Of a DNA stretch of 64,000 nucleotides, positions 2,538 through 31,392 are shown piece after piece. The notes beneath the pieces are model-generated. The model made no database searches, was not told where the DNA came from, and saw nothing but the letters and a program-made list of their open reading frames with translations. Both the position numbers and the translations under genes were made by a program. Source of the stretch: a bacterium (GTDB lineage Bacteria; Patescibacteriota; Minisyncoccia; Minisyncoccales; CG1-02-41-26). Every line of letters starts with the position of its first letter. Position 1 is the first letter of the stretch. The stretch lies in the NCBI GenBank assembly GCA_030619905.1, contig JAUXAO010000002.1, positions 129,193 to 193,192 on the forward strand. Reading direction: 5' to 3'.

Positions 2538-3554
2538 TCAATATTTCTTTTTTCTCGATCTCCGACCCTTTCGTCTTAAATGATCAAGGTATTGTTTATT
2601 TACTTTCTCTTTATTTTTAGGATTAGAATTATAAAAATTTATCATTTCATCAATAATTTTATCCGAAAATTGACTAGTTCCATATTTGGATTTCCAAAAA
2701 TAATCATTTTTCCTCTTCTTTATTCCGTTTACGAAACAATATGCCTCAAAATCATAAGTGGATATTTTTATTTTTAAATTTTTATTAGCTTTTTTTAATA
2801 CCTCTTTCCTTCTAAATGGATGAGTAATGTCAGGATCCCTATATTTTTCTAAGATAACCGCTCCCATTTTTTTACCAAATCTTCCTGAACTTAAAACGAT
2901 ATCAGCTTTTTTGGGATTCTTTATTAGTGCAACGGTATAATTAATAGGAATCGTCGCTCGCTCTCCCATTTTTTCCAATTTTCCAAACCTATCTACCCAA
3001 TATTTTATAGATTTAAAATCTTCCTTATTAAACTTTCCCTTGAGCACGGATATGTTTTTTAATGATTTTTCACTCGATATAAGACTAATAAGTCCTGGCG
3101 TAAATTCTTCTATCATTTTAATGCTAAACCATTTATCTAAACATTCAATATAATTAAGGACTCCTCGTTGAAACACTCTTGAAAAATATGGGTCCAATTC
3201 GGGGATAATAAGATGTGCTGACTCATTTCTTATTTCAGATATATACCCAACGTTATTTCGAATTTGATCGTTGGGATTTGTAAATACCCTACTTAAACAA
3301 TCGTCGATAGTAAAAGAAGTTCTTTTTATTCCCCTCTTTTTTTTATAAAATATACTATTTTTTTTACCTCCACTTTTCTCAAAAAGATACGCTTTCAGGA
3401 GCAACTCAAACGCGTTAGAGAATAAAATACTAAATGATTCTGTTCTGTATTTTATAGTGGGTTTATTAAATAATTCGAGTGCTAACAAAAATGCCGATTT
3501 GCTTTTTTCTATTAAATTTTTTGTTAATCTTTTCATTTTTCTATTAATTTTCAA
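2538..3554 (-). CDS. DUF3644-like protein with an Rx4H (HEPN-type) motif
   Basis: N-terminus KSKSAFLLALELFNKPTIKYRTESFSILFSNAFELLLKAYL resembles DUF3644. IRNESAH is an Rx4H motif. The track start is TTG; ATG at 3536 (MKRLTK) is more likely. Confidence 0.6.
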   Translation of the reverse strand: MKINRKMKRLTKNLIEKSKSAFLLALELFNKPTIKYRTESFSILFSNAFELLLKAYLFEKSGGKKNSIFYKKKRGIKRTSFTIDDCLSRVFTNPNDQIRNNVGYISEIRNESAHLIIPELDPYFSRVFQRGVLNYIECLDKWFSIKMIEEFTPGLISLISSEKSLKNISVLKGKFNKEDFKSIKYWVDRFGKLEKMGERATIPINYTVALIKNPKKADIVLSSGRFGKKMGAVILEKYRDPDITHPFRRKEVLKKANKNLKIKISTYDFEAYCFVNGIKKRKNDYFWKSKYGTSQFSDKIIDEMINFYNSNPKNKEKVNKQYLDHLRRKGRRSRKKKY

Positions 3555-3615
3555 CTTCGGGCTAAATTTTGATTTTTTGTTCTTTTGATAGTTTTTTCAT
3601 ATAATAATTTTAAAT

Positions 3616-4341
3616 TTATAAACCGTAAGAATTAAGTTTATCATTTTTTATTCTTCTTTTATTCTTATTGATTCTATTTTTCTCCTTCTGATAATAAAAT
3701 TGAATTGAGGAATTAATTTCTTTTATATCTTCTTTAATTTCTTTAAGAAGATTTTCGAATTGGTTTATTGAAACTAATTCTATAAAACATTTTTTATACG
3801 GCAAACTAAAAACATCGTCTATAGCTTCTATCTTAACAAGAGCATTATGATAATCCTTTCCCGCGGATACCAGTTTACCGTCGTAAACCACTATTAAATA
3901 ATAAATGCCTCTTACTAAATTATTTTTTCTAAAGGCGTCAAAAGATTGCAGATTTTGATTTATTGTTTTGTATAAAAAATCTTCACTGTCTTTAATTCCA
4001 AAAACCTTATTATAGTTATAAAAATGAAATTTTTTATTTCTTTCTAATTCGAAAATATCCGCAAAGGGTATGCTGTAAGCCAAAATAGTATTTTTGATTT
4101 TCTCCATATTTATATTCTCTGAATATATTTCTGTTTCTTTCGGTAAATATCTACACTCAATAAACAATCTTACGTTATAACTAAGAGGTTTTTCATTATC
4201 AAGTTGAGGAAGTATCGCAATAATATCTTTTTCGCGGGGTTTTTTGGTAATGGGGTCTTTATAATAAACATTCGCTGATACTTGCCAGCCATTTTCTTGT
4301 AAAATATCTTTTACTTGTTTTTCTAATTCATTTCCATTCAT
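3616..4341 (-). CDS. Putative PD-(D/E)xK-fold nuclease-like protein
   Basis: N-terminal ELEKQV helix, then EKDIIAI ... RLFIECRYL (D ... E-x-R/K arrangement). The assignment is tentative. Confidence 0.4.
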   Translation of the reverse strand: MNGNELEKQVKDILQENGWQVSANVYYKDPITKKPREKDIIAILPQLDNEKPLSYNVRLFIECRYLPKETEIYSENINMEKIKNTILAYSIPFADIFELERNKKFHFYNYNKVFGIKDSEDFLYKTINQNLQSFDAFRKNNLVRGIYYLIVVYDGKLVSAGKDYHNALVKIEAIDDVFSLPYKKCFIELVSINQFENLLKEIKEDIKEINSSIQFYYQKEKNRINKNKRRIKNDKLNSYGL

Positions 4342-4508
4342 AAATTTAGGTCTTATTTATAAATCCATTTTTTAACTTTTCCTTCTTAATTTTTAAATTC
4401 TCTTGATCTTCCATAACTTTATTTCTCAATTAATTCTTTGACTTTTTGTCTAAAATATAGAGTTGATACCATTTTTCATTTTAGAAAAGAGAGGTGAATT
4501 TATTTAAT

Positions 4509-4952
4509 TCATTGACTATAATCAAATTTCTTTAGAAGAAAATTGAAGTGTTTTTCAAATTCTTGAATTAATTTCTCATTAATTGTTATTTTTTTATATT
4601 TTCCGACAAGTGTAAACATAATAATCTTATCTAAATTACTTTCTCTTTCACTCAATTCCCAATGAGCCATTACATTCCTCAATTTCTGAATAAACCTCAA
4701 AGATTTTTTAATTTTAGGGTAATCTTTTAATCTTTTAAAATATGGGATTGATTCATAAATACTAATTTTGTTATCGAAACTAAGAAAAGAAGTATTTATA
4801 ATATTCCAAAAAAGAATTGTTGCCTTATTGTTAGTTTTAGGAAAAAAATATTTTCTTAAGCGGTAACCGAGAATAAACTCGATTCTTGAAGCAGATGAAA
4901 TAATTCCTCCCCTAATTGAATCCAATTTTTCTTTTATTATTTTCTTATTCAT
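4509..4952 (-). CDS. Small HEPN-like (Abi-type) protein
   Basis: FIQKLRNVMAHWEL contains RNxxAH (Rx4H), as in Abi_2/HEPN families. Confidence 0.55.
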   Translation of the reverse strand: MNKKIIKEKLDSIRGGIISSASRIEFILGYRLRKYFFPKTNNKATILFWNIINTSFLSFDNKISIYESIPYFKRLKDYPKIKKSLRFIQKLRNVMAHWELSERESNLDKIIMFTLVGKYKKITINEKLIQEFEKHFNFLLKKFDYSQ

Positions 4953-5018
4953 TTTCTTTTTCTAAATTTTCTTTAAATGCTTTATCTAAAATTGATTGAT
5001 TTATCTTTTTCTTGATAT

Positions 5019-5462
5019 TTATTTTGAGAAATAATTCAGAATTAATCCTGCAATAACTATTACGGCAATACAAATAATTAAATAAACCCACGGATTACTC
5101 ATCGTCCAAAACCTTTTGCCTTTATAAGAAATTTTAATTGGTCTAACACTTTTTTTCTTTATACCAAACTGCTTAATCTCGTTTATTATTGCATTTAAAA
5201 TAGCTTTAGCATCGTTCAAACCTTCAACATAAGTTTCATGAAATTCATTCTCAGTCGTTAAATCTGAAGAAAATAACAGCATATAATTAATATTATTAAA
5301 ATCTTTTAAGTTATCGGTGTGTTCTTCAAATATGTGCTTAATAGTTGTTTGAGTTTCTTTCTTCCATTGCTTAAATTTAGGGGAGGAATCTGAGAAATTT
5401 TTAAGATCTTCTATTTGGTCAATCTGTTTTTGAATAAATTGAATAGCTTCTTGGTTAGTCAT
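5019..5462 (-). CDS. Hypothetical protein with C-terminal TM anchor
   Basis: C-terminal WVYLIICIAVIVIAGLILNYF hydrophobic helix. No known motif. Confidence 0.5.
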   Translation of the reverse strand: MTNQEAIQFIQKQIDQIEDLKNFSDSSPKFKQWKKETQTTIKHIFEEHTDNLKDFNNINYMLLFSSDLTTENEFHETYVEGLNDAKAILNAIINEIKQFGIKKKSVRPIKISYKGKRFWTMSNPWVYLIICIAVIVIAGLILNYFSK

Positions 5463-5574
5463 TTTATTTTTTGTTTTTTCTTGTTATCTGCCCTCAAAAT
5501 CTTTCGACTTTTTGTTTTTTTTCTAAAGGTAAAAATAGGATTGATACCATTTTACCATTTTGCTGTCAAAAATT

Positions 5575-6030
5575 TTATATTAAAGACGCTTTTATTAAGC
5601 TTCCAAGCTCTGTTTTAATTAAGCTTTCAATATTAATATCGTCTGCAAGTTTGATGTTAAAAGTAACATGAAATTCTCGCTTTTCTTTTTCCCCACGTTC
5701 AATCCCTTCAACTATATCAATTCCTCCTTGAGAAACACTAATATTTAAAAAATGATCCGAAACATTATCTGAACTTCGAGACATATTAATAAATCCCTTT
5801 TCATATAAATATATTAAAGCATTATAAATATTATTGTCGTTTCCTGATATTTTAATAAGATCTTTAGAAATTTTATGTTCTTTATTGTTTATTACTGGTG
5901 ATTTTTCTCCATTAGAAAAATGTCTCATCTGAAAACTTAATATAAAGTCATGTAAATAGGAGTAATCATCTCTTTGAATAGAATAAAAATATAAAAGTAT
6001 CTTTCCAGCAATTTTTTTAATCGGTTCCAT
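5575..6030 (-). CDS. Hypothetical protein (possible winged-helix region)
   Basis: NIYNALIYLYEKGFINMS resembles a wHTH recognition region. Otherwise unknown. Confidence 0.45.
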   Translation of the reverse strand: MEPIKKIAGKILLYFYSIQRDDYSYLHDFILSFQMRHFSNGEKSPVINNKEHKISKDLIKISGNDNNIYNALIYLYEKGFINMSRSSDNVSDHFLNISVSQGGIDIVEGIERGEKEKREFHVTFNIKLADDINIESLIKTELGSLIKASLI

Positions 6031-6147
6031 AATTTTTTATTTTTCCGCCAGCTGACGGATTAATTTTTCGACTTTCCGTTTTAGTCAATTTATAATTGGT
6101 TGTTTGGCTACTGAGTTTTCATTAAGATTTTTAGACATTAGTTATTA

Positions 6148-6963
6148 TTATTTAAATTTTATTGTATCTTGCTTATCTGTTGGCAAAAGTTGATATTCTA
6201 AAATTTCGATATATGTAATTTTTCCGTCTTTATATCGCACTTTTGCTTTAATCTTTACTGGTTCGTCGATTATATCTCTGTAGTCATTGAAGTGAAATTC
6301 GCCTTTGACCGAAGTAGGTATTTTAGTTGGGCCATTTTTTATATTGAATCCAAAGTAATAGTTTCTCGGAGCATCAAGATCTAATTTTCTTATGGTCCCT
6401 TCTAGTTCTTCTTCAAATTCTCCATTTTTTAGTAATTTATTCTCGTCTGAGTCTTCCAGCGAACGATAAAATTCCTCCTTTTGTTCCTGTTTTATGATAA
6501 TTAAATTATTACTACCAATAATATTTACTTGATCACCGCCAGCATTTACAGGAGATACAACTTTTTTCATGTTTGATTTAAAATTCTTATCCTCTTCAAA
6601 ATCTTCTATCTCTTTCTGGAAGTTCTTGCTCTTATTTCTTCTATTTGTCAGGAAATAAATAAAAGTCGCGGTAATACAACCTGAAATAACTTTCTGAAAA
6701 ATTGGATTATTAAAGATAATCTCAATTACTTCACCAAAAGACCCACTTTTTAGTTTTAAAAAAATCTTTATATCGCCAGAACCAAAATCAATTTTTCTAT
6801 TATTTTTTAAAACATCGGCAGTATTTTTTACTATACTTTCTATAGCCTCTAACTGGGTATATAAATCCTTTATTATCATCTTACTCTCAAAAGATGGCCC
6901 TTTGTATATGATTTCGATGCTATCCTTTTTGATTATTTTTTCTCCGAACAAATTTTTATTCAT
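6148..6963 (-). CDS. Hypothetical single-TM protein, start 3 nt after the res stop
   Basis: Central hydrophobic segment VISGCITATFIYFL and a beta-rich C-terminal region. No motif recognised. Confidence 0.55.
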   Translation of the reverse strand: MNKNLFGEKIIKKDSIEIIYKGPSFESKMIIKDLYTQLEAIESIVKNTADVLKNNRKIDFGSGDIKIFLKLKSGSFGEVIEIIFNNPIFQKVISGCITATFIYFLTNRRNKSKNFQKEIEDFEEDKNFKSNMKKVVSPVNAGGDQVNIIGSNNLIIIKQEQKEEFYRSLEDSDENKLLKNGEFEEELEGTIRKLDLDAPRNYYFGFNIKNGPTKIPTSVKGEFHFNDYRDIIDEPVKIKAKVRYKDGKITYIEILEYQLLPTDKQDTIKFK

Positions 6964-6966
6964 AAT

Positions 6967-9183
6967 CTAAAGATTTAAATCAGTCCAATTATCGAAAGAA
7001 TTATCTTTTAACTCTTTACTTGTTTTATCAAAATAAATCCATCGTCCTCTATATTCTCTTTGATCAGTATTTGTAACTATCCCACCGAAAAGTTTTTTAC
7101 CTTTTTTGTTTTCATTTTGAATATAGCTATATAACCCATCCGATTTAGGTTTAAAATCGCTTAAATAAGTACCATGAGGATCAAACAACCCTACTCTCCC
7201 ACTTTTTAATTTAACAATGAAATCGACATAAAATGGCTTTTGTCTCTCGTTATTATAAGGCACGGCGAAAAATGTTGCATCTCGATCTCCATTTTTAAAC
7301 CACTGCTTAATATTATTTGACTTTTCTAAAAATTCTATAAATAATTTTTCTGTTTTCCACCTACCGTTACTAAAAAATGGTTGCATTATCGATTTCTTCT
7401 TCTCTTCTCTTACATATTCACTATTAAATCTTAAACTCTCAGGGATATTCCAATTTTTAATTGATGCTAATTCTTTTTCTTTTTTAAAAATCTCTTGAAT
7501 GTAATTTTCTTTCGCTTCTTCAATTGTTCCTATAAAATAATATTTATTTTTATTATTTAACACAACTTTGATGATTTTTTCTTGCTTCTTTCCATAATCC
7601 ATCCCAAAAACTAACTGAAAAAATCTATAGATTGCTTCTTTAACTTTACCTACTGACCTATCTTCGGGATAAAAGGGAGATAGATTTTTTCTTACAAAAA
7701 AATCAAACAATTTTTGGAGTTCATAACCTGCTGGTTTAAACTTTGCCTTCCTTTCTCTCGTTAATCCCGCCATAGCCTGATCAATCTCTTCCATTTTCCA
7801 GTCTGAAATGATCTCCTCATCTAACTTCTTGGTCCATAAATTTATCTTCTTTTTTAAATTTCTCTTTTTAGCTATATCCAAAAATATCTTAATAAATAAA
7901 GGGGATAATCTTGTCCTTTCTCGATGTCTTTTGGAATGATAAGAAGTTAAATTTACCGGCTGATAATCTTCTCTGCGTTTGCTTTCATAAATTGTGATAT
8001 AATCTTTAGCAATGTCTTCTTTTATTTCAATATCACTTAAATTAGTGTAGATATAAGCTAAATTTAGTACTGGATAATTTTGATAATGGCCCTTGTCCGG
8101 CTCTGGCATTCTCATAATTCGGCCAACTGTTTGTATCGAAAAAATAGGGCTATGCCATTCTCGAAATAAAACTAAAATTTGGGCACGGGGGCAATCCCAA
8201 CCCAAGGCAATTGCTTGTTTAAAAATCAAAACTTCGACTTCACTGTCATTTTTTTCAACATTTTCTTTATTTATATGTTCACCGGAAAGCCAAATAGCCA
8301 ATTTGCCATTTTTCTTAGTTATATTGTATTTATCTTCTAAAATCCTGATTATTTTTTCTTTCATTGTATCCTCTAAACTCCCTATCCGATCTGGTAATTG
8401 GATCAAAATTAAAGGATTAATGCCTGCTTTTTCTTCACAATATTCTTTCAAAAGATCTTTTCTCTTTTTTAATGCCTCTTTAATAACCATCTCTTCACTT
8501 CCTTCACCTAATTCTGTTTTTATTTTTCCTTTATCTAATTTATTTTTAAAATCTTCATTTAAAACCACGGCCTTTTTAATCATTCCTTCAGTTTTAACAT
8601 CTTCAATATGAACATTTACAGTCTCGTTACCCTCCAAAACCGGGGTAGCCGAAACTTCAATTGTTAAATCAGCACTTATGTCTTGCCTTAATTTATTTGC
8701 TGCTGGCGCATCAGCACTGAAATGACTTTCATCAATAATCAAAATTATTTTTCTATTTTCTTCTCTGGTATTTTCAAGTACTTTTGATAAATTTAAATCC
8801 TGTTCATTTTCTCGAATGTAAATATTATCTCTTTTATTTATGCTTTCCCAATTGAAAAACAAAATCTCATTTTCTCCGATCCTTCTATTCTCTAGGTCTT
8901 CGAAAAACGAACATCTTAAAGCCCGAGTATTTCTAAAATAGTTCTCTAGCTTCTCCTTACTTTGTTCGTGTAAATGTCTTGGAGCCGTCCAAATAAAAGA
9001 CAAGGGTTGCCTAAATTCTGGATCCTTAATCAATTGCTTCAAGAATTCAGCCATCATTATTGTTTTCCCTGAACCAGTCGGCGCCCTAAAAACCAATTTC
9101 TTATTACCAGAATAACCCAAAAGTTTTTTGGCTTTCTCTAATAAATCATCTATTGCATTTTCTTGATAAATTTTGAGCTGCAT
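6967..9183 (-). CDS. res: Type III restriction enzyme Res-like SF2 helicase subunit
   Basis: Motif I RAPTGSGKT, motif II IIDESH, motif III SATP. C-terminal FYVDFIVKLKSGRVGLFDPHG resembles a PD...(D/E)xK nuclease core but reads D-P-H instead of E-x-K. Confidence 0.8.
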   Translation of the reverse strand: MQLKIYQENAIDDLLEKAKKLLGYSGNKKLVFRAPTGSGKTIMMAEFLKQLIKDPEFRQPLSFIWTAPRHLHEQSKEKLENYFRNTRALRCSFFEDLENRRIGENEILFFNWESINKRDNIYIRENEQDLNLSKVLENTREENRKIILIIDESHFSADAPAANKLRQDISADLTIEVSATPVLEGNETVNVHIEDVKTEGMIKKAVVLNEDFKNKLDKGKIKTELGEGSEEMVIKEALKKRKDLLKEYCEEKAGINPLILIQLPDRIGSLEDTMKEKIIRILEDKYNITKKNGKLAIWLSGEHINKENVEKNDSEVEVLIFKQAIALGWDCPRAQILVLFREWHSPIFSIQTVGRIMRMPEPDKGHYQNYPVLNLAYIYTNLSDIEIKEDIAKDYITIYESKRREDYQPVNLTSYHSKRHRERTRLSPLFIKIFLDIAKKRNLKKKINLWTKKLDEEIISDWKMEEIDQAMAGLTRERKAKFKPAGYELQKLFDFFVRKNLSPFYPEDRSVGKVKEAIYRFFQLVFGMDYGKKQEKIIKVVLNNKNKYYFIGTIEEAKENYIQEIFKKEKELASIKNWNIPESLRFNSEYVREEKKKSIMQPFFSNGRWKTEKLFIEFLEKSNNIKQWFKNGDRDATFFAVPYNNERQKPFYVDFIVKLKSGRVGLFDPHGTYLSDFKPKSDGLYSYIQNENKKGKKLFGGIVTNTDQREYRGRWIYFDKTSKELKDNSFDNWTDLNL

Positions 9184-9185
9184 AA

Positions 9186-9770
9186 TTAACCTCTCTTAAA
9201 ATATAAACTACCAAAATTTTGCCTATCTCTACCAGAATAATATTCACCAGTAAGAGTGTTGTCTTTCTCGTTAAATAACAGTCTTGTAGTTCCACGATGA
9301 ATACTCATTGTTTCAATAGAGTCTGATTTTGGTTCGTTAATATATTGATAACTTAAATATTTGCCTTCGGGTGTATTCATTACGATAGATGCTGTCTCAC
9401 TGTGAGACAATGAATGTTCAGTGATTAGTATAATTTTTATCTGCGTCCAAGTTTGGAAAAAGCGTAAAGTTGCTTTTGTTTCTGATGAATGCTCATCAAA
9501 AGAAGATTTTAGATGTCCTTCCCATTCTCCATTTAGGTCAGGAGTTTTTACAAGGCCAATTTTTCTAAAAAATTTCCAGAGCCATTTATCAAAAACCCAA
9601 AAAAATAGACCGTAGAAACATAACACTGATGGACTTTCAACCCACCAAGACAAAGTAATTTGATGATTACTAAGTATCTTATAAAAACTCCAAGTTAGGA
9701 CAATACTAACAATCGCCAAGAATAATAAAGTGTTTTTTCTTTCTTTTGTATCTATAGAATAGGAATGCAT
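9186..9770 (-). CDS. Cap15-like / S-2TMBeta effector (two N-terminal TM helices plus a beta-rich domain)
   Basis: Hydrophobic helices LLFLAIVSIVLTWSFY and VLCFYGLFFWVF, then PDLNGEWEGHL...TGEYYSGRDRQNFGSLYFKR. About 194 aa. It lies immediately downstream of the NTase, as in type I CBASS. Confidence 0.65.
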   Translation of the reverse strand: MHSYSIDTKERKNTLLFLAIVSIVLTWSFYKILSNHQITLSWWVESPSVLCFYGLFFWVFDKWLWKFFRKIGLVKTPDLNGEWEGHLKSSFDEHSSETKATLRFFQTWTQIKIILITEHSLSHSETASIVMNTPEGKYLSYQYINEPKSDSIETMSIHRGTTRLLFNEKDNTLTGEYYSGRDRQNFGSLYFKRG

Positions 9771-9771
9771 A

Positions 9772-10623
9772 TTACCAATTATCCCAAAGCGAGATTAAAT
9801 TTTGTATAAATTCTTTTGCTTGGTCTATATTCCATTGCTCGGGCGTCATTCCAAAAAGTTTTAACTGTTCATTCTGGCAGATAAAATTTTCTAAACTTAC
9901 TTCATCAAGCCAATTTACAACATTACAAAAAGTATCTTGGTAGTTTGTTCCAAAATCCTCATCAGGAACATTATAAAGCATACATTCCAAAAAATACGAG
10001 GGGGTTAAATCTCCAGAAATATAACCCCTGCTGTTTTTAAACAATCTTACAGTTCGTTTATACCAAGTATCTGTATTTTGGTTTTTATATACTCCGTTAT
10101 TATAATGACTTTTTGGATAGTTTATAATCCAGCGCGACTCACTCGGTACCCAAAATGTCATGCCCTTTATAAACTTAGATAAGTCTGCGGAATATTTTCT
10201 ATATTGAATACAAATAACCACATCAGCAGGCAGTCGTCCATTGTCTCCACCTAATTTCAAGGATTTTCTTCCTTCTTCAATAGACGAAGCTCCGTAATAT
10301 CTACACAGAGCGTCAAAAACATCAGTTCTAAAATCTCGCCATTTATAATACGCTTCTGAAATACCTAAAAGTCGTTTTTCTTCTTCTGTTAAATTAGAAC
10401 GAAAGGTGGTACTTAGCTGAACAACTAAATCCACATCACTATCACCACGAATATTGGTATTATTTTTATATGATCCCTGTAAATAGATCTCATAATCAAT
10501 GTTCTCTTCTTGCCAATCATCATATACAGCCAAAGCATTCTTAATAGAATCAGCAGTTGCTTTGGCGGTAGTAACCGCCCCTAGATGCGACCATGTTTCT
10601 AATTGTGATTCTGGTATAGTCAT
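9772..10623 (-). CDS. CD-NTase / SMODS-type nucleotidyltransferase
   Basis: QGSYKNNTNIRGDSDVDLVVQL (G-S ... D-x-D), third acidic residue in LPADVVICIQY, and a C-terminal helical part with SYFLECMLYNVPDE. Confidence 0.7.
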   Translation of the reverse strand: MTIPESQLETWSHLGAVTTAKATADSIKNALAVYDDWQEENIDYEIYLQGSYKNNTNIRGDSDVDLVVQLSTTFRSNLTEEEKRLLGISEAYYKWRDFRTDVFDALCRYYGASSIEEGRKSLKLGGDNGRLPADVVICIQYRKYSADLSKFIKGMTFWVPSESRWIINYPKSHYNNGVYKNQNTDTWYKRTVRLFKNSRGYISGDLTPSYFLECMLYNVPDEDFGTNYQDTFCNVVNWLDEVSLENFICQNEQLKLFGMTPEQWNIDQAKEFIQNLISLWDNW

Positions 10624-10625
10624 AA

Positions 10626-12320
10626 TTATTTAAATATTCTTCTATATACTCTCAAAATTGCTTCGGGGATAGGAAAAAGTTTAACTTTTTGTTTTATATC
10701 AGTAAACTCTTCTTCAAAAGTATCATCGCCTAAAGAAAAAACATAGACACTAAATTTGCTTTTTATCTCTTTAATTACCTTTTTAAACTCTGGTATTGCT
10801 AATTGGTCAAAAATTATACCGGTATAATGATTGGTATTTTTGAAAATCTTAAAATTCTTTCGACCCATAACTTTCTCAAAAGTTTCTTCTTTTATGCAAA
10901 GCATTTCTGTTGTTTGTTCGGTTAATTTCTTTTTATTTTTATCGGTTGGTTCGGCGTCAACAAGATCGGTTTTGAAATATTTTAAGTTTCCACCTAGGCC
11001 TCTTTTATTTTTAAAACCATGAATTACTTTTGTTATCCTAGGATAACAAAGTTTAGAACACACCCTCGCTTCATCATTGGTGCACAAAATAAATTTCCTA
11101 TTTCCACCATCTTTTCTATTAAGATCCAAAACAGCATGGCCAGTAGTTCCTGAACCAGCAAAAAAATCTAAAACTGTCAAATCCTTTTGTTTAGGGTAAA
11201 TCGTGATTATCCTTTCAATAAGTTTTATTGGTTTTTGTCCGTTCGGCAATATTACAGGAGATTCATTTTGAATATTATTATAATCTATATCATCCCATAT
11301 ATCCGAAAGGGCTAATGCTATACCCCTGAATTCTCCACCATTCAGTGGTTTTATGGAAGATGAGAGAAAAGAAAGCATTCTGCCATTGTATAAATATATT
11401 TTATTTCCTGACTTAGATTTAAAAATAATTACTTCACCATTCTTTTTTAGAGATTCTTTTTTCTCCGGAGAATCTTTATAAGCACCGGTCTGACAAATAT
11501 TATCTTGATATTCTAAATAAAACTTTTTGAATTTAGGATCTTCTATTTCTAAAGAACCAATCTTTTGTCCGCTTCTTAATAGTCCCTTTTTCAAAAGGAT
11601 AGATTTTAAATCCATTATTCTATTATTTCTCTTATTATAGAATAAATTAAAATGGGAATCCCATTTACCTTTCTTTCCAGTATAAGTTCTATTATAGTTA
11701 TATTTACTACTGTTCCTTGAATAAATTAGTAAATAATCTTTTATTCTCACTGGTTTATTTCCATATATTTTAAAAGCATTTATTGAAGATGTTCTCACTG
11801 TTATCTCTGCGATAAAGTTATTTTCTCCGAAGATTTGGTCACAAAGAATCTTAAGCTGAGATTTTTCATTATCATCAATAGAAATAAAAATCACCCCTGT
11901 ATCTTTTAATAAATTTTTTGCCAATCTCAATCTTTTCTCCATAAAAGAAAGCCATTTTGAGTGGCGATAGGCATCTTCTTTATCAATGTAGCGATCATTG
12001 AAAATGAAATCTTTATTACCAGTATTATATGGTGGATCAATATAAATCATATCTACTTTCTTTGCGTGAGTGTAATTCAAAACTGAAAGCGAATGATAAT
12101 TATCACCTTCAATTAGAAGATTAACCGATTTATTTTTGTCAGTTATTATTTCTTTATTTTTTGCTTCTTTTAGAACTGGTAATTCCTTCTTACATTGCTC
12201 AGCAACTTTTTCTTCTTTTTCTTCCCAAACCAAACCATATTTTTTGCGTTTTTCTAAGTTCTGAATTCTTGCAATTAAATCTTTTTTTGACCAATTTTTA
12301 TAATTTTTCTTTTTTGGCAT
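10626..12320 (-). CDS. mod: Type III R-M Mod DNA methyltransferase (beta-class N6-adenine/N4-cytosine)
   Basis: Motif IV IYIDPPYNTG precedes motif I VLDFFAGSGTTGHAV (beta permutation). The size of 564 aa is typical of Mod. Confidence 0.88.
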   Translation of the reverse strand: MPKKKNYKNWSKKDLIARIQNLEKRKKYGLVWEEKEEKVAEQCKKELPVLKEAKNKEIITDKNKSVNLLIEGDNYHSLSVLNYTHAKKVDMIYIDPPYNTGNKDFIFNDRYIDKEDAYRHSKWLSFMEKRLRLAKNLLKDTGVIFISIDDNEKSQLKILCDQIFGENNFIAEITVRTSSINAFKIYGNKPVRIKDYLLIYSRNSSKYNYNRTYTGKKGKWDSHFNLFYNKRNNRIMDLKSILLKKGLLRSGQKIGSLEIEDPKFKKFYLEYQDNICQTGAYKDSPEKKESLKKNGEVIIFKSKSGNKIYLYNGRMLSFLSSSIKPLNGGEFRGIALALSDIWDDIDYNNIQNESPVILPNGQKPIKLIERIITIYPKQKDLTVLDFFAGSGTTGHAVLDLNRKDGGNRKFILCTNDEARVCSKLCYPRITKVIHGFKNKRGLGGNLKYFKTDLVDAEPTDKNKKKLTEQTTEMLCIKEETFEKVMGRKNFKIFKNTNHYTGIIFDQLAIPEFKKVIKEIKSKFSVYVFSLGDDTFEEEFTDIKQKVKLFPIPEAILRVYRRIFK

Positions 12321-12324
12321 AATT

Positions 12325-12996
12325 TTAAATTAATTTTTTCTCTTTAAAACTAAATACCTTGGTTTTGGTAATAATTATATGGTCCAAAACATCTATCCCC
12401 ATTATCTTGCTTGCTTCTACTATTCTCTTAGTGATCTCTAAATCATCTTGAGAAGGTTCCGAATCCCCCGAAGGATGATTATGAGCTAAAATTACTGAAG
12501 CGGCATTATATTTTAAAGCTCCAGCAAAAATTTCTCGGGGATGGACTAAATTAGCATTTAAGGTGCCAACAAACATTGGCTTTTTATGAATCATTTCGTT
12601 TCTACCATTAAGATAAATAACCATCAAATGCTCTCTAGTTTTATCTTTCATATAAATAGCTTGAGCAATAACATCTTTGACTGAATTAATAATTGGCAGG
12701 GTTTCATCTCTCACCTTCAAAGCTCTTTTTACTAACTCCTGAGCGGCTAAAATGGTACAAGCTTTAGCTGGGCCAATACCTTTAATCTTAGACAATTCTT
12801 TATAATCTAATTGTAATAATCTTTTTTTAGAATATTTTCTTAAAATTTGTCTGGAAACCTCAATAACGTTCTTCCCTTTTATTCCAATTCCTAAAAGAAT
12901 AGCTAAAAGTTCCTCATCTTTTAAATTCTGAGAACCTTTAGCAATCAATTTTTCTCTTGGTCGTTCAATTTTGGATAAATCTTTTATTTTTAGCAT
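12325..12996 (-). CDS. radC: RadC/UPF0758 JAB-domain protein
   Basis: HhH region GIGPAKA and JAMM motif HNHPSGDSEPSQDD. Confidence 0.9.
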   Translation of the reverse strand: MLKIKDLSKIERPREKLIAKGSQNLKDEELLAILLGIGIKGKNVIEVSRQILRKYSKKRLLQLDYKELSKIKGIGPAKACTILAAQELVKRALKVRDETLPIINSVKDVIAQAIYMKDKTREHLMVIYLNGRNEMIHKKPMFVGTLNANLVHPREIFAGALKYNAASVILAHNHPSGDSEPSQDDLEITKRIVEASKIMGIDVLDHIIITKTKVFSFKEKKLI

Positions 12997-13007: not shown

Positions 13008-13586
13008 TTATTCAACAAACGGATTCTTCATCCCAAAAACTATTTTTGGTGTTTGGTTGTTAATAACATCCTCTGAAAGATTATACTTCCTGCTGTATAA
13101 TGTATCAATTGAACAAAATAAGGCATCTTTGTAATCAAATCCAAGCTTTCCAGCCATATCTTTAACTGATTCTTCTGAATCCCCTTCAATCTCAACAAAT
13201 GGCTCTAAAAATGGCCATTCATCAATTGTAATCTCAATACCATCTATTTCCCACAATTCTCTTTTATTCTCCTGATAAGCTTTCTTTTCACAACCTAAAA
13301 GAGTTAAAAACTCTTCAGCTCTTTCTAAACTGTCAATTTTTAGACAAATTTCCTTTTGACTTTCAATACCAGCACCATCAACAACCTTTAAACTCATTGT
13401 GATTTTATCTCCCTCATCTCTAACTCTTATCCATCCTCCTTTTATCTTGCATTCTTTTGGAAGATTAAAAACAATCCTTTTTTGCAAGAATTCAGAACGA
13501 ATTAGTTTTCCTTTAATTTTTCTTAATTTTTCTCTTATATCCTTCTTATCAATATTCGTAAAAGTAGCTTCGTATTCTATTTTCAT
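13008..13586 (-). CDS. CYTH-domain protein (class IV adenylate cyclase / triphosphate tunnel metalloenzyme)
   Basis: N-terminal MKIEYEATF (ExE) and later acidic strands WEIDGIEITIDEW and FVEIEGD. Confidence 0.72.
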   Translation of the reverse strand: MKIEYEATFTNIDKKDIREKLRKIKGKLIRSEFLQKRIVFNLPKECKIKGGWIRVRDEGDKITMSLKVVDGAGIESQKEICLKIDSLERAEEFLTLLGCEKKAYQENKRELWEIDGIEITIDEWPFLEPFVEIEGDSEESVKDMAGKLGFDYKDALFCSIDTLYSRKYNLSEDVINNQTPKIVFGMKNPFVE

Positions 13587-21435: not shown

Positions 21436-22083
21436 CTAAATTTTACAATAGTTTTTCATTGGGCTAAAACTTTTTCGGTGTATTTTGCAGGGACCATATT
21501 TTCTCAGCATTTTAAAATGTAATCTTGTTCCATAACCCTTGTGTTTGTCAAATCTATATTTGGGATACTGCTTATGGTATCTTAACATAGATTTATCCCT
21601 ACTCACTTTAGCTATGATTGAAGCAAGTTTTATTAAAAAAACCTTTTCATCTCCTTTTACTATGGATTTCTGAGAAATGTCTGAATTAATACTAAAATTC
21701 CCATCTATTAATAAAAAATCAATTTTTACATTTTGTTTCTTGTTTTTTGATATTAGATTATCAATTGCTCTTTTCATTGCTAATTTTGTTGCCTGAAAAA
21801 CGTTTATTTTGTCAATTATTTTTTCTGAAACTCTGCCTATCCCCCACTCAACCCCTGATAAATTTCTTAATATTCTAAAAATCTTTTCTCTTTTCCTGGG
21901 ACTCAATTTTTTAGAATCTTTTAGCTCTTTTGAAAATTGAGAATTGAAAATTGAAAATTTTTGAACACTAACAGCAGCTGCAGTTACCGAGCCACTTAAG
22001 GCTCCTCTTCCAACTTCATCCAGTCCAACAATAATCTTGCACCCTCTTTTTTTTAATCTTTTTTCTAAGGCCGAAATTGACAT
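21436..22083 (-). CDS. rnhB: Ribonuclease HII
   Basis: VGLDEVGRGALSGSVTAAAV, DSKKLSPRKRE. Confidence 0.9.
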   Translation of the reverse strand: MSISALEKRLKKRGCKIIVGLDEVGRGALSGSVTAAAVSVQKFSIFNSQFSKELKDSKKLSPRKREKIFRILRNLSGVEWGIGRVSEKIIDKINVFQATKLAMKRAIDNLISKNKKQNVKIDFLLIDGNFSINSDISQKSIVKGDEKVFLIKLASIIAKVSRDKSMLRYHKQYPKYRFDKHKGYGTRLHFKMLRKYGPCKIHRKSFSPMKNYCKI

Positions 22084-22145
22084 ATTGTTTAATTTTGAGA
22101 AATTGAGTTATAATATTATAATACAATAATATCAAATATAAGAAT

Positions 22146-22817
22146 ATGGAGGATAAAAATATTTTATCTCAAGATGAAATAGAAAAAGAAATTCAACTCT
22201 CCGAAATGCAAGAAAGATCTGCTAATTTCAGAGGGAAAGTTCTTCCTAATCTTTCTTTCCACGGACGAAATCTTAAAATAGGATTAGATCTTGAATCAGC
22301 AATAATTTTAGGCTCTTTTTTCTTAGAAAATACTTCTATAAGAGGAGATTTAAACTTAAATAGAATAATTATAAAAGGAGTTTTTTACTTCGGTTCAAGT
22401 AATTTAGATGGTGATTTAAATTTCCAAGATGGAAATGTAAAAGGAATAGTGAATCTGGTGGGAAGTAAGATAGAGGGTAATTTAAACTTTCAGGGTTTAA
22501 ACATAGATGGATTTTTGAGTCTAGCAAAAACAAAAGTGAAAGGAAATCTGAATTTTGAAAAAATAAAAGTTAGCGATTCTTATAATGCTGGTTTAGTTAT
22601 TAAGGGTGATGTTTATTTGAGAAATACATTGATAAATGGTTACTTGAACATGGAAAAAGGATCAATTGAAGGTTCTTTAGATTTTTCCAACGCTTTAATT
22701 GCAAAAGAAGTAAATTTAAAAAACGTTAGAATTAAAGAATCTTTAATTCTGAAACAAGCAAAAATTCAAGGAAAGTTGATTGACGAAGAAATAAAATATA
22801 AACATATAATAAGATAA
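22146..22817 (+). CDS. Repeat (pentapeptide/beta-helix-like) protein
   Basis: ANFRGKVLPNLSFHGRNL, followed by roughly 20-aa repeats of the type xIxGxLNFxxxxVxG. Confidence 0.5.
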   Translation: MEDKNILSQDEIEKEIQLSEMQERSANFRGKVLPNLSFHGRNLKIGLDLESAIILGSFFLENTSIRGDLNLNRIIIKGVFYFGSSNLDGDLNFQDGNVKGIVNLVGSKIEGNLNFQGLNIDGFLSLAKTKVKGNLNFEKIKVSDSYNAGLVIKGDVYLRNTLINGYLNMEKGSIEGSLDFSNALIAKEVNLKNVRIKESLILKQAKIQGKLIDEEIKYKHIIR

Positions 22818-22824
22818 ATTCCAC

Positions 22825-25800
22825 ATGAAGTTTACTCATCTACATGTCCATAGTCATTATAGTTTGTTAGATGGTTTGTCAAAGATTGATGATCTTTTAG
22901 ATTATGTCAAGAAATTAGGCATGGATTCTGTTGCTTTAACTGACCATGGAGTTTTGTATGGGGCGGTTGAATTCTATAAAAAAGCAAAAAAGGCAGGAAT
23001 CAAACCGATAATCGGAGCCGAGATGTATATGTCCTATGAAAGAATGGGACAAAAAAGACCTAATATTGACGATAAAAGATATCATTTAGTTCTTTTGGTA
23101 AAAAATGAAGAAGGGTACAAGAACCTGGTAAAACTGATAACAAAAGCCCACTTAGAGGGTTTTTATTATAAGCCAAGAATTGACGACGAATTATTAGCAG
23201 AACATAGCTCTGGTCTTATTGGTCTCTCAGCCTGTCTTCAGGGAAGAATCCCTATATTGATTTTATCTGATAGGACCGAAGAAGCTGAAAATTATATCTT
23301 AAAATATCAAAAGATTTTTGGAAAAGATAATTTTTATTTAGAGATCCAAGATCATCCAAATCTTAAAGGGCAAAAAAAAGTAAACGACACCTTAATTAAG
23401 CTTTCCAAAAAACTTGGCGCTCCATTAGTAGCCACCAATGACAGCCATTATTTAAAATCTGAAGATTCAGAAGCTCAAGATATTTTAATGATGATAAATA
23501 CTGGATCAAAACCAGACGATCCAGAACGGTTAACAATGAAGACTGATGATTTCTCGATGCGAACTCCCCAACAAATGTTTGAATCGTTTAAAAATGTTCC
23601 TGAAGCTATTGAAAATACTCAAAAAATTAAAGACCTTTGTAATTTCAACTTCAAATTAGGTGAGATAAAACTTCCCTCTTTTGAAACACCATCTGGAAAA
23701 ACTCCTGATGATTATTTAGAAGAATTATGTCAGCAGGGCATGGATAAGAAATACAAAAAATTCTTTAGAAAGGAAGCTCTTTCCCGCTTGGAATATGAAC
23801 TTTCGGTCATTAAACAAACCGGCTTTGCTCCTTACTTTCTTATAGTCCAAGATTTTGTTAACTGGGCAAAGGGAAATCGAATTGTAGTAGGTCCGGGAAG
23901 AGGAAGCGTAGGAGGCTCGATTGTTTCTTATCTTTTAAATATTACTACTATTGATCCTTTAAAACATAATCTTTTGTTTGAGAGATTTTTAAATCCCGGG
24001 CGTATTTCAATGCCAGATATTGACCTTGATTTTACCGACCGGAGAAGGGATGAGGTAATAAACTATGTAGCTGAGAAATATGGCCGAGATAAGGTTGCTC
24101 AGATTATTACTTTTGGAACAATGGCTTCCAGAGCAGTTATCAGAGACGTTGGAAGAGCAATGAAATTAAATTACAGTTATTGCGATCGACTGGCTAAGAT
24201 GATTCCTTTTGGTTTGACCTTAAAACAGTGTTTAGAAAAGGTCTCTGAGTTCCGTCAGTTTTATGATAGCGACGAACAGGCAAAAGAATTGATTAATTTT
24301 TCCCAAAAGCTTGAGGGATGTGCCAGGCACGCCTCAACCCATGCCTGCGGAGTAGTAATTTCAAAAGACCCTTTAGATGAGATTGTTCCTATCCAGCATC
24401 CGACCCAGAATGACAAAACCACTGTTACTCAGTACGAAATGTACTCAATTGAAGATTTAGGCCTTTTGAAAATGGACCTCTTGGGGTTGAAAAACTTAAC
24501 TATTATTGAAGACACTCTCTCAAGAATTTATAAGGTCCAGAATAAGAAAATTAATATAGAAGATATTCCTTTGGATGACAAAAAAACTTATAAATTATTA
24601 CAGGAGGCACAAACTACAGGTGTTTTCCAATTGGAATCGAGCGGCCTTAAAAGGTATCTTAAAGAACTTAAGCCAACTAAATTTGGAGATATAGTAGCTA
24701 TGGTAGCCCTTTATCGACCCGGCCCTATACAATTCATACCAGAATATATTGAAAGAAAGCATAAAAGAAGAAGAATAGAATATCTGCATCCAAAACTCAA
24801 ACCAATTTTAGAAGATACCCAGGGAATCTGTATCTTCCAAGAACAATTGATGCAGATTGCCAGGGACTTGGCTGGTTTCTCTTTAGCTGAAGCAGATATT
24901 TTAAGAAAAGCAGTTGGTAAAAAAATAAAGAGTTTGCTGATTACTCAAAAAGAAAAATTTACTAAAGGAATGATAAAAAATGATATTAAGGAGGAGGTCG
25001 CTCACAAAATCTGGGACTGGGTTTTGCCTTTCGCCCGTTATGGGTTTAATAAATCCCATAGTGTGGCTTACGGAATGATTGCCTACCAAACTGCCTATCT
25101 AAAAACTCGGTTTCCTATTGAATTTATGGCTGCTCTTCTAACTTCAGAGAAAACAGATATCGAACGAATTGCCTTTTTAATAGAAGAATGCAAGGATATG
25201 AAAATTGAAGTTTTACCTCCTGATATTAATGAAAGTTTTAGATATTTTTCTGTTGTTCCTAGCAAGAAAAAAATAAGATTCGGTTTGTTAGCTATTAAAA
25301 ATGTTGGTTCAAATGTAGTTGAAGCGATAATTAAAGAACGCAAAAAGGGAAAATTTAAATCGTTTATAGATTTTATCTCAAGAATTGATTCAAAAGATTT
25401 GAATAAAAAATCTTTAGAAAGTTTGGCCAAGACTGGAGCTTTTGATAAATTTGAAGAAAGAAATAAATTACTTTCTAACATGGAAGAGATTCTGAATTTC
25501 AACCGCGAGATTAGAAAAGCAAAAACAAACGGCCAAAAAAGCTTATTTGATTGTAATACAAATAATCCAAGCCCTTCTTTCAAATTAAAAGATGAAAAAC
25601 CTGCTCCTATGTCACGAAAATTGTTATGGGAAAAAGAACTTTTAGGTCTTTATATCTCTTCTCATCCTTTAGAAAAGTTTAAAAATATTTTAAGCAAAAA
25701 AACCTTATCTCTCAAGGACTTGAAAAGCGGGAGTTTCCCCTATAAGATAAGAGTCGGCGGAATAATTTCATCTATTAAGAAAATCTTAACCAAAAAAGGT

Positions 25801-25992
25801 CAGCCAATGCTCTTTGTGAAATTAGAAGATTTAACTGACAAAATTGAGATAGTAGTCTTTCCCTCAATTATTGAGAGGAATCCAACTGCTTTCCAAGAAA
25901 ATAAAATTGTTTTTGTTACTGGCAAACTTGAAAATTGGTATAGTCCGCCAAAAATAATTTGCGAAGAGATTGAGGAAATAATAGAAAAGTAA
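22825..25992 (+). CDS. dnaE: DNA polymerase III alpha subunit
   Basis: PHP domain FTHLHVHSHYSLLDG, PDIDLDF, C-terminal OB fold. 1055 aa. Confidence 0.95.
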   Translation: MKFTHLHVHSHYSLLDGLSKIDDLLDYVKKLGMDSVALTDHGVLYGAVEFYKKAKKAGIKPIIGAEMYMSYERMGQKRPNIDDKRYHLVLLVKNEEGYKNLVKLITKAHLEGFYYKPRIDDELLAEHSSGLIGLSACLQGRIPILILSDRTEEAENYILKYQKIFGKDNFYLEIQDHPNLKGQKKVNDTLIKLSKKLGAPLVATNDSHYLKSEDSEAQDILMMINTGSKPDDPERLTMKTDDFSMRTPQQMFESFKNVPEAIENTQKIKDLCNFNFKLGEIKLPSFETPSGKTPDDYLEELCQQGMDKKYKKFFRKEALSRLEYELSVIKQTGFAPYFLIVQDFVNWAKGNRIVVGPGRGSVGGSIVSYLLNITTIDPLKHNLLFERFLNPGRISMPDIDLDFTDRRRDEVINYVAEKYGRDKVAQIITFGTMASRAVIRDVGRAMKLNYSYCDRLAKMIPFGLTLKQCLEKVSEFRQFYDSDEQAKELINFSQKLEGCARHASTHACGVVISKDPLDEIVPIQHPTQNDKTTVTQYEMYSIEDLGLLKMDLLGLKNLTIIEDTLSRIYKVQNKKINIEDIPLDDKKTYKLLQEAQTTGVFQLESSGLKRYLKELKPTKFGDIVAMVALYRPGPIQFIPEYIERKHKRRRIEYLHPKLKPILEDTQGICIFQEQLMQIARDLAGFSLAEADILRKAVGKKIKSLLITQKEKFTKGMIKNDIKEEVAHKIWDWVLPFARYGFNKSHSVAYGMIAYQTAYLKTRFPIEFMAALLTSEKTDIERIAFLIEECKDMKIEVLPPDINESFRYFSVVPSKKKIRFGLLAIKNVGSNVVEAIIKERKKGKFKSFIDFISRIDSKDLNKKSLESLAKTGAFDKFEERNKLLSNMEEILNFNREIRKAKTNGQKSLFDCNTNNPSPSFKLKDEKPAPMSRKLLWEKELLGLYISSHPLEKFKNILSKKTLSLKDLKSGSFPYKIRVGGIISSIKKILTKKGQPMLFVKLEDLTDKIEIVVFPSIIERNPTAFQENKIVFVTGKLENWYSPPKIICEEIEEIIEK

Positions 25993-25996
25993 TCTT

Positions 25997-27724: not shown

Positions 27725-27792
27725 TCCTCAATTAATCATTGATTATTAATCGCTGATTATTGATCATTGATCATTGATAAATTCAACAAAAT

Positions 27793-29043: not shown

Positions 29044-29134
29044 ATCTTTAATAAACCCAAGAAATAAATAAATTTGAGTTCTTTAAAAGCTTCCTACTGA
29101 TGAAAGTCTGCTGAACAAAAGGAGGTGAATTCAG

Positions 29135-29461
29135 ATGGATGTAAAATGGAATATTCTGCTCAAAACGAAAGAGGTATGCAAACAAAGAGAATTTGATCAA
29201 AATATTTTTGACTCTCGGGCTCCTCCTTCTAAGATGAAAAGAGAAATTCGGGAGGAATATATGAAAATGCTCAGCAGTTTCTTAAGTGTAATACCGCTTT
29301 TCATGTTTGAAGATAATAACAACAGCAAAAAGTATCCTCAAGAAAAAGTGATGAAAACTCTAAGAATTATTGAAAAGGATTATGAAAAAACTTTTGGGGA
29401 TTACCTTGAAGGCATAAAAAGAAGGTATCCGGAAGATATTTGGAAAATAAAAAGTAAGTAA
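29135..29461 (+). CDS. Hypothetical protein (strong SD AAGGAGGTGA)
   Basis: ORF with a strong SD. No motif recognised. Confidence 0.4.
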   Translation: MDVKWNILLKTKEVCKQREFDQNIFDSRAPPSKMKREIREEYMKMLSSFLSVIPLFMFEDNNNSKKYPQEKVMKTLRIIEKDYEKTFGDYLEGIKRRYPEDIWKIKSK

Positions 29462-29516
29462 AGGAGATAAAATGAAAAACGAGACCGAAAAACAAAAAGA
29501 CATCAGTAGGAAGACT

Positions 29517-29567: not shown

Positions 29568-29573
29568 AACTTT

Positions 29574-31364: not shown

Positions 31365-31392
31365 TATTTAAGAATAATTCGAATTAAAGTTT

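Follow-up and report, generated by a model that had tools for sequence, protein, structure and literature searches.

A CdnE-Cap15 CBASS pair in a recurrent cargo slot between mod and res of a RadC-associated, type III-like restriction-modification module

How does a nucleotide-signaling pair of the abortive-infection type come to lie between the two genes of a restriction enzyme, and do the two layers depend on each other? This question is raised by a stretch of 64,000 nucleotides from a bacterium of the candidate phyla radiation (CPR) (GenBank assembly GCA_030619905.1, contig JAUXAO010000002.1, positions 129,193 to 193,192; hereafter the window, to which all coordinates refer unless a related locus is named). 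On its minus strand, the genes encoding the type III methyltransferase Mod (564 aa, 10626..12320), a clade E CD-NTase (CdnE, 283 aa, 9772..10623), a Cap15 effector (194 aa, 9186..9770), and the type III-like restriction protein Res (738 aa, 6967..9183) follow one another, CdnE being the cyclase of a CBASS, a signaling system against phages that is based on cyclic oligonucleotides. A preliminary description, made from the sequence alone, had regarded this arrangement as either a tolerated insertion of the pair into a restriction-modification (RM) operon or a functionally coupled two-layer system. The first part of the proposal stands and can be widened: the mod-res junction of a family of RadC-Mod-Res modules is a recurrent, conserved cargo slot, in which CBASS is one exchangeable cargo, because the slot is empty or filled by unrelated families that are scattered on the Res tree. 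The second part, a specific coupling of nucleotide signaling to Res, is not supported, since the slot takes unrelated cargo or none, the cargo is polyphyletic on the Res tree, and relatives of the cassette are found elsewhere.

The near-zero spacing of the four co-directional genes in the preliminary description was confirmed, with spacers of 1-2 nt between mod, the CD-NTase gene, the Cap15 gene, and res. A gene encoding a RadC-family protein (223 aa, 12325..12996, minus strand) ends 4 nt 5' of mod, and a 271-aa ORF of unassigned function (6148..6963, minus strand) begins 3 nt 3' of res; according to the ORF listing and the sequence, the spacers from RadC through Mod, CD-NTase, Cap15, and Res to this ORF measure 4, 2, 1, 2, and 3 nt. 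On the upstream side, the slot is bounded by the 2 nt that separate the mod stop codon from the first cargo ATG (10624..10625, minus strand), and on the downstream side by the 2 nt that separate the last cargo stop codon from the res ATG (9184..9185, minus strand). The window thus carries 1,442 nt of cargo between mod and res, and mod is not directly followed by res here; their separation concerns the order of the genes and not the family of the enzymes. A consensus scan for promoters and terminators, which is informative only as showing no obvious internal signals, detected no promoter- or terminator-like sites between the genes of the block, because the block has no intergenic space; the separate internal promoters and terminators that the preliminary description had named as a refutation are not evident. 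The promoter-like matches that were recorded (25, vs. 37.8 in shuffled sequence) were weak and exclusively intragenic.

The Res protein provided the widest view of the slot. A search with it returned more than 7,500 matches at E ≤ 1e-10, the best 120 of which were 64-100% identical to the query, and a metagenome scan with a Res alignment yielded 80 loci; the slot counts use the 64 of these that also hold the 3' end of mod. The junction between mod and res was empty (3-9 nt) in 13 of the 64 and filled (0.4-3.1 kb) in the other 51, i.e., in 80%. The metagenomic loci and four CBASS-bearing genome loci together contain 69 cargo ORFs, all located on the mod/res strand and tightly packed, which, judging from the gap lengths, nearly fill the whole interval between the two genes. 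These ORFs form 30 sequence clusters, 28 of them besides the two CBASS genes, and CBASS accounts for approximately one in 65 slots.

Cargo recognized by family profiles comprises an OLD-family ATPase-TOPRIM nuclease (PADLOC Old, 9e-58; 12 loci), a PHP-SMC ATPase similar to Ppl (Ppl, 1e-27; seven loci), DUF3644 proteins (PDC-S19, 5e-132; two loci), a RelA/SpoT protein (PDC-S33, 8e-120; one locus), a Ymh-type HEPN protein (PD-Lambda-3_B, 6e-39; one locus), and an AriAB-like (PARIS-like) ATPase (3e-34; one locus). The slot also holds a pair consisting of an IrrE peptidase and a DUF4411-PIN protein (two loci), a PIN protein (one locus), DUF3800 proteins (two loci), Schlafen/AlbA_2 proteins (two loci), and an MBL hydrolase accompanied by a membrane protein (two loci). 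Ten cargo clusters showed no family match in either library (Pfam, PADLOC) or a weak one only. Among the cargo without a family match are a protein of ~282 aa in six loci (L093:5477-6325, L109, L117:3772-4617, L123, L155, and L159), a protein of ~370 aa in three loci (L092, L135, and L136:5872-6984), and cargo lacking a Pfam or PADLOC match that was found in single loci (L084, L121, L139, L145, and L151).

The order Mod-CdnE-Cap15-Res is itself recurrent. When 185,579 species-representative genomes were scanned with a cyclase alignment, 80 loci were obtained, and tblastn with the window proteins revealed the nested order in four of them: L004 from a Nitrospirae metagenome-assembled genome (MAG) and L011 from an Aenigmarchaeota archaeon, both with RadC upstream, L006 from Lentimicrobium, and L007 from a Planctomycetota MAG. 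One further metagenomic example (L100) came from the Res-side scan, and three (L166, L167, and L169) from contigs of six more cyclase homologs. The survey of conservation proposed in the preliminary description therefore ends with nine nested loci, the window and eight others, distributed over several bacterial phyla and one archaeon, and with relatives in which mod and res are contiguous and free of insertion scars.

Cargo turnover outpaces the divergence of the flanking genes, as follows from the scatter of cargo types on the Res tree and from the interleaving of nested and non-nested cassettes on the cyclase tree. In a neighbor-joining tree of Res, the CBASS loci are polyphyletic and occupy four separate places, and in the cyclase tree the two kinds of cassette are intermingled. 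The nearest Res relatives of the window copy (81-83% identity) hold an OLD gene, a Ppl-like gene, or an unassigned gene, not CBASS, and in several near-identical Res pairs one junction is filled and the other empty.

The boundaries of the slot are precise. Both flanks were available for 68 loci, and in the 30 junctions inspected the cargo starts 1-11 nt past the mod stop codon, the last 36 nt of mod being nearly the same sequence throughout, whereas the last cargo stop codon lies a few nt 5' of the res ATG and overlaps it in L152. These junctions contain no repeats, mobility genes, or scars, and no meaningful tandem repeats were found. The first 30 nt of res show a third-codon-position identity of 0.75 vs. 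0.48-0.62 for the rest, and the 400 nt on each side of the slot have a pairwise nucleotide identity of ~75-83%. Within Res, the segment just after the DExH box occurs as alternative alleles (AHHHATSEISQ, SHFSADAPAAN, SHYQAQS, and a longer SQFAAGTRDKK), and neither these alleles nor the variants of the C-terminal motif described below track the Res tree, which suggests intragenic recombination. Since the flanks are ~75-83% identical and the Res alleles are mosaic, homologous recombination between module copies would be the simplest mechanism of cargo exchange.

Defense hotspots and cassette platforms, such as integron cassettes and the P2/P4 prophage hotspots, combine a fixed site and conserved flanks with interchangeable, unrelated defense cassettes. 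The slot resembles them in its fixed position between conserved genes and in the swapping of unrelated defense cassettes, but it has no integrase, attC-like sites, or boundary repeats, and it is the coding ends of mod and res themselves that flank it. Integron-like site-specific exchange was rejected on account of the spacers of a few nt, the lack of repeats, and a flank conservation that is unexceptional apart from nt 1-30 of res. A search of sequenced plasmids found no close Res relative, only matches of ≤35% identity confined to the helicase half. The sole Res relative in the viral collection is encoded on an IMG/VR contig (L164, 60% identity), where mod and res (5310-9223) overlap by one base; this module has neither cargo nor a RadC match and represents an 'empty' copy on a putative virus or provirus. 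The plasmid and viral scans identified no mobile vehicle for the module.

The genes that frame the slot were identified in the preliminary description as mod and res, and the inner ones as a CD-NTase and a Cap15-like effector with two transmembrane (TM) helices; profiles of Pfam, PADLOC, and PDB sequences support all four assignments. To judge from its homologs, the 564-aa protein is a type III Mod, namely a β-class N6-adenine DNA methyltransferase. It matches N6_N4_Mtase (Pfam, 5.1e-35) and MTase_III (PADLOC, 4.5e-85), and the proteins of solved structure most closely related to it are type III Mods (6K0W, 2.4e-44; Mbo45V, 7e-44; EcoP15I Mod, 1.4e-34), those solved proteins coming from H. pylori, Mycoplasma bovis (Mbo45V), and EcoP15I. 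The motifs IYIDPPYN and FFAGSGTTGHAV quoted earlier are present in the translation, and DPPY (motif IV) precedes FxGxG (motif I), which is the β-class order. The N- and C-terminal thirds align among Mod relatives and the middle third does not, as expected of a target-recognition domain. Phase-variable repeats were not found in mod.

Res is the least canonical of the four proteins. It matches ResIII (4.2e-22) and SWI2_SNF2 (2.7e-09) in Pfam and REase_III in PADLOC (9.5e-17), and its homologs carry the JGI name 'type III restriction enzyme'. The SF2 helicase motifs I (APTGSGKT), II (DESH), and III (SATP), all quoted in the preliminary description, were found in the translation together with motif VI (QTVGRIMR), and they are invariant in the family. 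The Res profile gave no match among PDB sequences even at E ≤ 10, and an AF2 model built from a 16-sequence alignment reached a pLDDT of 50, with values <50 over the C-terminal 170 residues, where it is unusable. Because of the missing structural match and the poor model, a putative C-terminal PD-(D/E)xK-like nuclease can only be inferred, from the conserved FYVDF...GLFD-T-K motif. This motif is dimorphic among 80 Res homologs, 58 having FYVDF...GLFD-[TS]-K and 22 GLFD-[PT]-H; the window Res carries D-P-H, the minority variant of the family D-T-K motif (Res residues ~650-738; window 6967-7230). The module resembles EcoP15I, Mbo45V, and the H. pylori enzyme in its homologous Mod with β-class motif order and variable center and in a Res that is an SF2 helicase with ResIII motifs. 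Unlike canonical type III RM, its Res is shorter (738 aa in the window) and has no sequence match to EcoP15I Res, cargo splits mod and res in 80% of the family, and RadC is a near-constant upstream gene.

Whatever its cargo, the Mod-Res module has RadC as a conserved partner on its upstream side. The window protein, composed of UPF0758_N, HhH, and JAB domains, matches Pfam RadC (1.4e-43) and UPF0758_N (2.7e-26) and scores 244 bits against the NCBIfam RadC equivalog (cutoff 180). A RadC homolog lies upstream in the same orientation in 44 of the 49 related loci with enough upstream sequence, including one archaeal locus. The interval between radC and mod is a second variable position, measuring ≤133 nt in 23 of 43 loci and containing 1-8 ORFs, nearly all co-oriented, in the other 20; in L166, a ClpP-like gene is found there. 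The possibility that RadC serves a type II CBASS as its Cap3-like JAB protease was rejected, since the protein is a canonical RadC, is present whatever the cargo, and reaches only E = 0.011-0.014 with CBASS JAB models.

Taken together, we consider it probable that the locus is a RadC-Mod-[cargo]-Res module of type III-like character, whose conserved mod-res slot holds, in this genome, a self-sufficient minimal type I CBASS. The spacers of 1-4 nt suggest that all genes share one transcript, which would start from a promoter upstream of mod or radC. As established for type III RM, Mod would methylate host sites, and the Res-Mod complex would cut unmethylated incoming DNA. Cleavage by type III enzymes depends on ATP and on two unmethylated sites in inverse orientation. 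A phage escaping restriction would activate CdnE, which, by analogy with its relatives, would synthesize a cyclic dinucleotide, predicted to be 3'3'-cUMP-AMP; this nucleotide would bind the Cap15 barrel, and Cap15 would oligomerize and disrupt the inner membrane, so that the infection aborts, again as in relatives of the effector. The restriction and CBASS layers would act independently. Nesting would supply the cassette with a promoter and couple its horizontal transfer to that of the RM module, and, in our own reasoning, it may also guard the cassette against deletion, since loss of mod with retention of res would expose unmethylated host DNA to restriction. Different module copies would exchange cargo through homologous recombination in the conserved 3' part of mod and the 5' part of res.

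Several observations weigh against this interpretation. Transcription, enzymatic activity, and phage defense are all deduced from sequence. The D-P-H variant and the putative status of the nuclease domain mean that restriction by the window copy is not certain. The exchange mechanism is likewise an extrapolation from sequence comparisons, and the slot flanks are no more conserved than the neighboring coding sequence, except for the first 30 nt of res. Finally, 15 of the 19 cassettes discussed next are linked to RM or methyltransferase genes, a link stronger than mere proximity in defense islands, and a functional tie could therefore exist.

These 19 loci are those with readable context in the clade of closely related cyclases (≥61% identity). 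In eight of them, the cassette is nested in the same type III family, and in four it follows directly, in the same orientation, a type II methylase-nuclease pair: a methylase and an HNH protein in L005 (2275-5168), a methylase and TdeIII in L010 (425-4253) and L009 (83-2979), and a type II pair with an unknown partner in L001. The co-oriented cassette begins 1-28 nt downstream of the RM pair in L005, L009, and L010. Three more are arranged back-to-back with methyltransferase genes, and four are located elsewhere. We read the cassette as a mostly promoterless unit that appears to ride RM operons of several types. In two of the back-to-back loci (L008:1155-3431 and L013:1459-3018, both minus strand), CdnE-Cap15 diverges from a gene encoding a fusion of a LexA DNA-binding domain, an S24 autopeptidase, and a methyltransferase, the last being Eco57I-like or N6_N4; by analogy with CapH/CapP, such a fusion could regulate the CBASS promoter in response to DNA damage. 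Among more distant CdnE-Cap15 relatives (42-57% identity), ~12 of ~63 loci have type I hsdM/hsdS genes upstream, and no RM enrichment was detected downstream across the ~63 loci. Nesting of these distant relatives in RM systems was rejected; the RM genes are neighbors only.

The linkage to RM genes bears on the explanation that survives best among the alternatives, a guard coupling of the PrrC type, in which Res-Mod or its cleavage products gate the cyclase, and inhibition or failure of restriction through a phage anti-restriction protein would lead to cUMP-AMP synthesis and Cap15-mediated death. PrrC in the type Ic EcoprrI system is the archetype of an abortive-infection gene nested in an RM system (bioRxiv 10.1101/2024.01.29.577857), and the window pair may be analogous to it as a predicted abortive-infection effector inside an RM operon that forms a second layer upon failure of restriction. 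Precedents for such coupling are the latency that EcoprrI imposes on PrrC and the PARIS/Gabija-like sensors of anti-restriction proteins that occur as embedded genes. The nested, co-oriented, and translationally tight arrangement would fit it, as would the finding that 15 of the 19 close cassette relatives are attached to various types of RM or methyltransferase genes. However, physical association with EcoprrI keeps PrrC inactive, and PrrC is nearly confined to type I RM loci, whereas CdnE-Cap15 occurs outside RM and beside unrelated RM types as well, with 8 of 19 close relatives in the type III family described here instead of a near-exclusive occurrence within one RM type. The RM partners of the cassette (type III Res, HNH, TdeIII, and LexA-fused methyltransferases) are unrelated enzymes, which makes a shared physical interface unlikely, and some relatives have no adjacent RM gene. 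Moreover, the slot is empty in 13 of 64 loci and otherwise takes 28 other unrelated cargo families, and descriptions of CdnE/Cap15-type systems present them as type I CBASS operons that stand alone (PMC10442399). We therefore regard guard coupling as unlikely. A wider form of the same idea, in which embedded cargo in general, including CdnE-Cap15, guards the restriction enzyme and the CD-NTase is triggered by a stalled or inhibited Res-Mod complex or by its DNA ends, seems to us just as doubtful, if not slightly more so.

In place of a functional module, the locus could represent a neutral or decaying insertion, i.e., a mobile cassette that broke the operon between mod and res and has no function there. 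Since 13 of 64 relatives and one viral contig have mod and res side by side, the ancestral state was probably uninterrupted. Nevertheless, all genes of the block are intact and their catalytic residues invariant, the nested cassette has been kept as intact ORFs in all nine genomes at 62-78% protein identity, its boundaries are precise to a few nt without scars, repeats, or mobility genes, and 80% of the related modules hold cargo at the same place, which leaves this explanation with a very small chance of being correct.

The preferred reading, an exchangeable but functional cassette, also requires that the inner pair be what it appears to be. By every criterion that sequence allows to be examined, it is a genuine minimal type I CBASS composed of CdnE and Cap15. 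The 283-aa protein matches the PADLOC CBASS cyclase PDLC00788 over its full length (5.7e-105), and a family profile of 26 homologs matches CdnE from Rhodothermus marinus (RmCdnE; 6E0K/6E0L) over residues 1-283 (3.9e-121), the pairwise identity being 58%. The motifs GSYKNNTNIRGDSDVDLVV, ADVVIC, and SYFLECMLYNVP reported earlier are present in the translation and contain the GS...[DE]xD...D catalytic pattern of the CD-NTase fold; the catalytic residues G50-S51, D63, D65, and D134 are invariant across the 26 homologs and align with those of RmCdnE. RmCdnE produces 3'3'-cUMP-AMP, Asn166 selecting uracil and the separated Cys252 and Glu265 leaving room for the purine donor (PMC10442399). These three residues (N166, C252, and E265) are kept in the window protein as N168, C249, and E262, and for this reason its product is predicted to be 3'3'-cUMP-AMP.

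The 194-aa protein matches Cap15_TM at residues 15-66 (Pfam, 9.2e-11) and the whole Cap15_CD_rec profile at residues 74-193 (Pfam, 2.5e-34), as well as the PADLOC 2TM effector (1.3e-81) and, at the sequence level, the solved Cap15 barrel (PDB 7N34, 2.1e-12). It is thus predicted to have two N-terminal TM helices followed by a C-terminal β-barrel of the cyclic-dinucleotide receptor type, as is characteristic of Cap15, and such a partner adjoins the cyclase in almost all of ~80 related loci. No Cap2/Cap3 or HORMA/TRIP13 accessory genes were detected among ten neighboring proteins using Pfam and PADLOC. The pair therefore resembles known type I CBASS of the CdnE-Cap15 type in being a two-gene cyclase-effector operon without Cap2, Cap3, or HORMA and in keeping the catalytic and lid residues of RmCdnE, but it differs in its position between mod and res, in lacking both intergenic space and its own promoter, and in its Patescibacteria host.

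The minimal composition of the pair raises the question of whether signaling might be inverted, as in Panoptes, where a minimal nucleotide polymerase is combined with a Cap15-like 2TM β-barrel effector (PMC12657218). A constitutively produced nucleotide would then hold the effector off, and depletion of the signal by phage sponges or nucleases would release the effector. The window pair has no recognizable sensor or regulator gene, which would be compatible with such a scheme. However, its synthase is a full-length clade E CD-NTase with 58% identity to RmCdnE, not mCpol, its effector matches Cap15 models end to end, and Cap15 disrupts the membrane on ligand binding (PMC10442399); inverted signaling is accordingly a still slimmer prospect than a neutral insertion. 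The weakest alternative, that the 283-aa protein is a non-signaling nucleotidyltransferase (an MNT/KNTase-type antitoxin or a CCA-adding-like enzyme) and the pair not CBASS, draws on the local Pfam copy, in which NTP_transf_2 (1e-5) outscores SMODS (0.0012, under its cutoff), and on the name 'tRNA nucleotidyltransferase' given to some homologs in databases, but it is refuted by the profile and structure-sequence matches above, by the precomputed Pfam family CD_NTase_C (PF26305), which matches all homologs, and by the adjoining Cap15, and its probability is negligible. The profile comparison proposed in the preliminary description thus came out in favor of a signaling cyclase with a Cap15 effector, although SMODS alone stayed under its cutoff, and local Pfam scores taken literally would wrongly have led to the opposite conclusion.

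The embedding of defense genes within other defense systems has been surveyed by Payne, Hughes, Fineran, and Jackson for Hma, BREX, DISARM, and type I RM in RefSeq genomes; in 96.7% of cases, embedded genes had the same orientation as the host system, and the PDC models of PADLOC were derived from embedded genes (bioRxiv 10.1101/2024.01.29.577857). Type III RM lies outside that survey, and CBASS is absent from its main text (bioRxiv 10.1101/2024.01.29.577857). The slot shares with such guilt-by-embedding cargo the co-oriented nesting between core genes, the variation of cargo among homologous hosts, and the occurrence of the cargo elsewhere, and some of its cargo families match the models PDC-S19, PDC-S33, and PDC-M48B derived there. 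It differs from the surveyed examples in that the host is a type III-like RM system found almost entirely in uncultured lineages and without a close plasmid relative. Our literature search on embedding in type III RM, genes nested between mod and res, and RadC-linked type III systems found no description of it. The statement in the preliminary description that no interleaved example had been characterized therefore holds for the type III slot and not for embedding as such, which is known from PrrC, Hma, BREX, DISARM, and type I RM. The slot family may have been overlooked earlier because it comes mainly from uncultured lineages. The system is of a known kind, and what is new about it is that the embedding takes place in a type III-like RM family whose slot is highly variable; the CBASS pair itself is ordinary, and its location shows something broader.

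The surroundings of the module are those of a chromosome. The window also encodes DnaE, ThrRS, GatA/B, GyrB, and PheT, and the CPR affiliation of the host, proposed earlier, is borne out by GyrB, whose best named relatives are from Candidatus Nealsonbacteria (82%) and Patescibacteria (75-79%). The flanking host genes, compared with those of related loci in order to define an empty chromosomal site, gave no synteny matches. The 271-aa ORF downstream of res showed no significant Pfam, PADLOC, or NCBIfam match, and no homolog adjoins Res in more than 160 related loci; it may be a further passenger of the operon, its membership in the module being uncertain. Together with other small minus-strand genes 3' of res (2538-6963), it lies in a region with the appearance of a defense island, which includes a 147-aa protein that matches PDC-S35, a PADLOC candidate (4.5e-14), as well as a 338-aa DUF3644 protein (6e-43) of the family PDC-S19, also found as slot cargo in L125 and L141. 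On the other side, a 192-aa CYTH (class IV adenylate cyclase-like) protein (13008-13586, minus strand; NCBIfam cyaB 1.7e-12, under its cutoff) is encoded by a gene ending 11 nt 5' of radC; this is probably a host gene outside the module, because no counterpart was found in the related loci. GC skew is positive from ~22 to ~32 kb and negative elsewhere in the window, the positive region (~22000-32000) corresponding to a 10-kb block in which the genes (DnaE, ThrRS, and others) lie on the plus strand, the window being otherwise minus-strand; gene-strand bias or an inversion would fit this pattern.

The slot module is very widespread and conserved, across bacterial phyla and in a DPANN archaeon, mostly in uncultured groundwater and sediment lineages, and with it guilt-by-embedding comes to include type III RM and genomes that are not part of RefSeq. 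By the same logic, the unmatched cargo families, the commonest of ~282 aa and ~370 aa, are candidate new defense genes. Modules with the same RM genes and differing or no cargo form a natural isogenic series in which the sensing of a failure of the surrounding system could be tested. If the embedded pair did act as a guard, the trigger of CBASS would be the failure of restriction, which would provide a general activation rule for minimal type I CBASS. For organisms with small genomes, such as CPR bacteria, the arrangement would explain how layered defense can be accommodated in one transcription unit.

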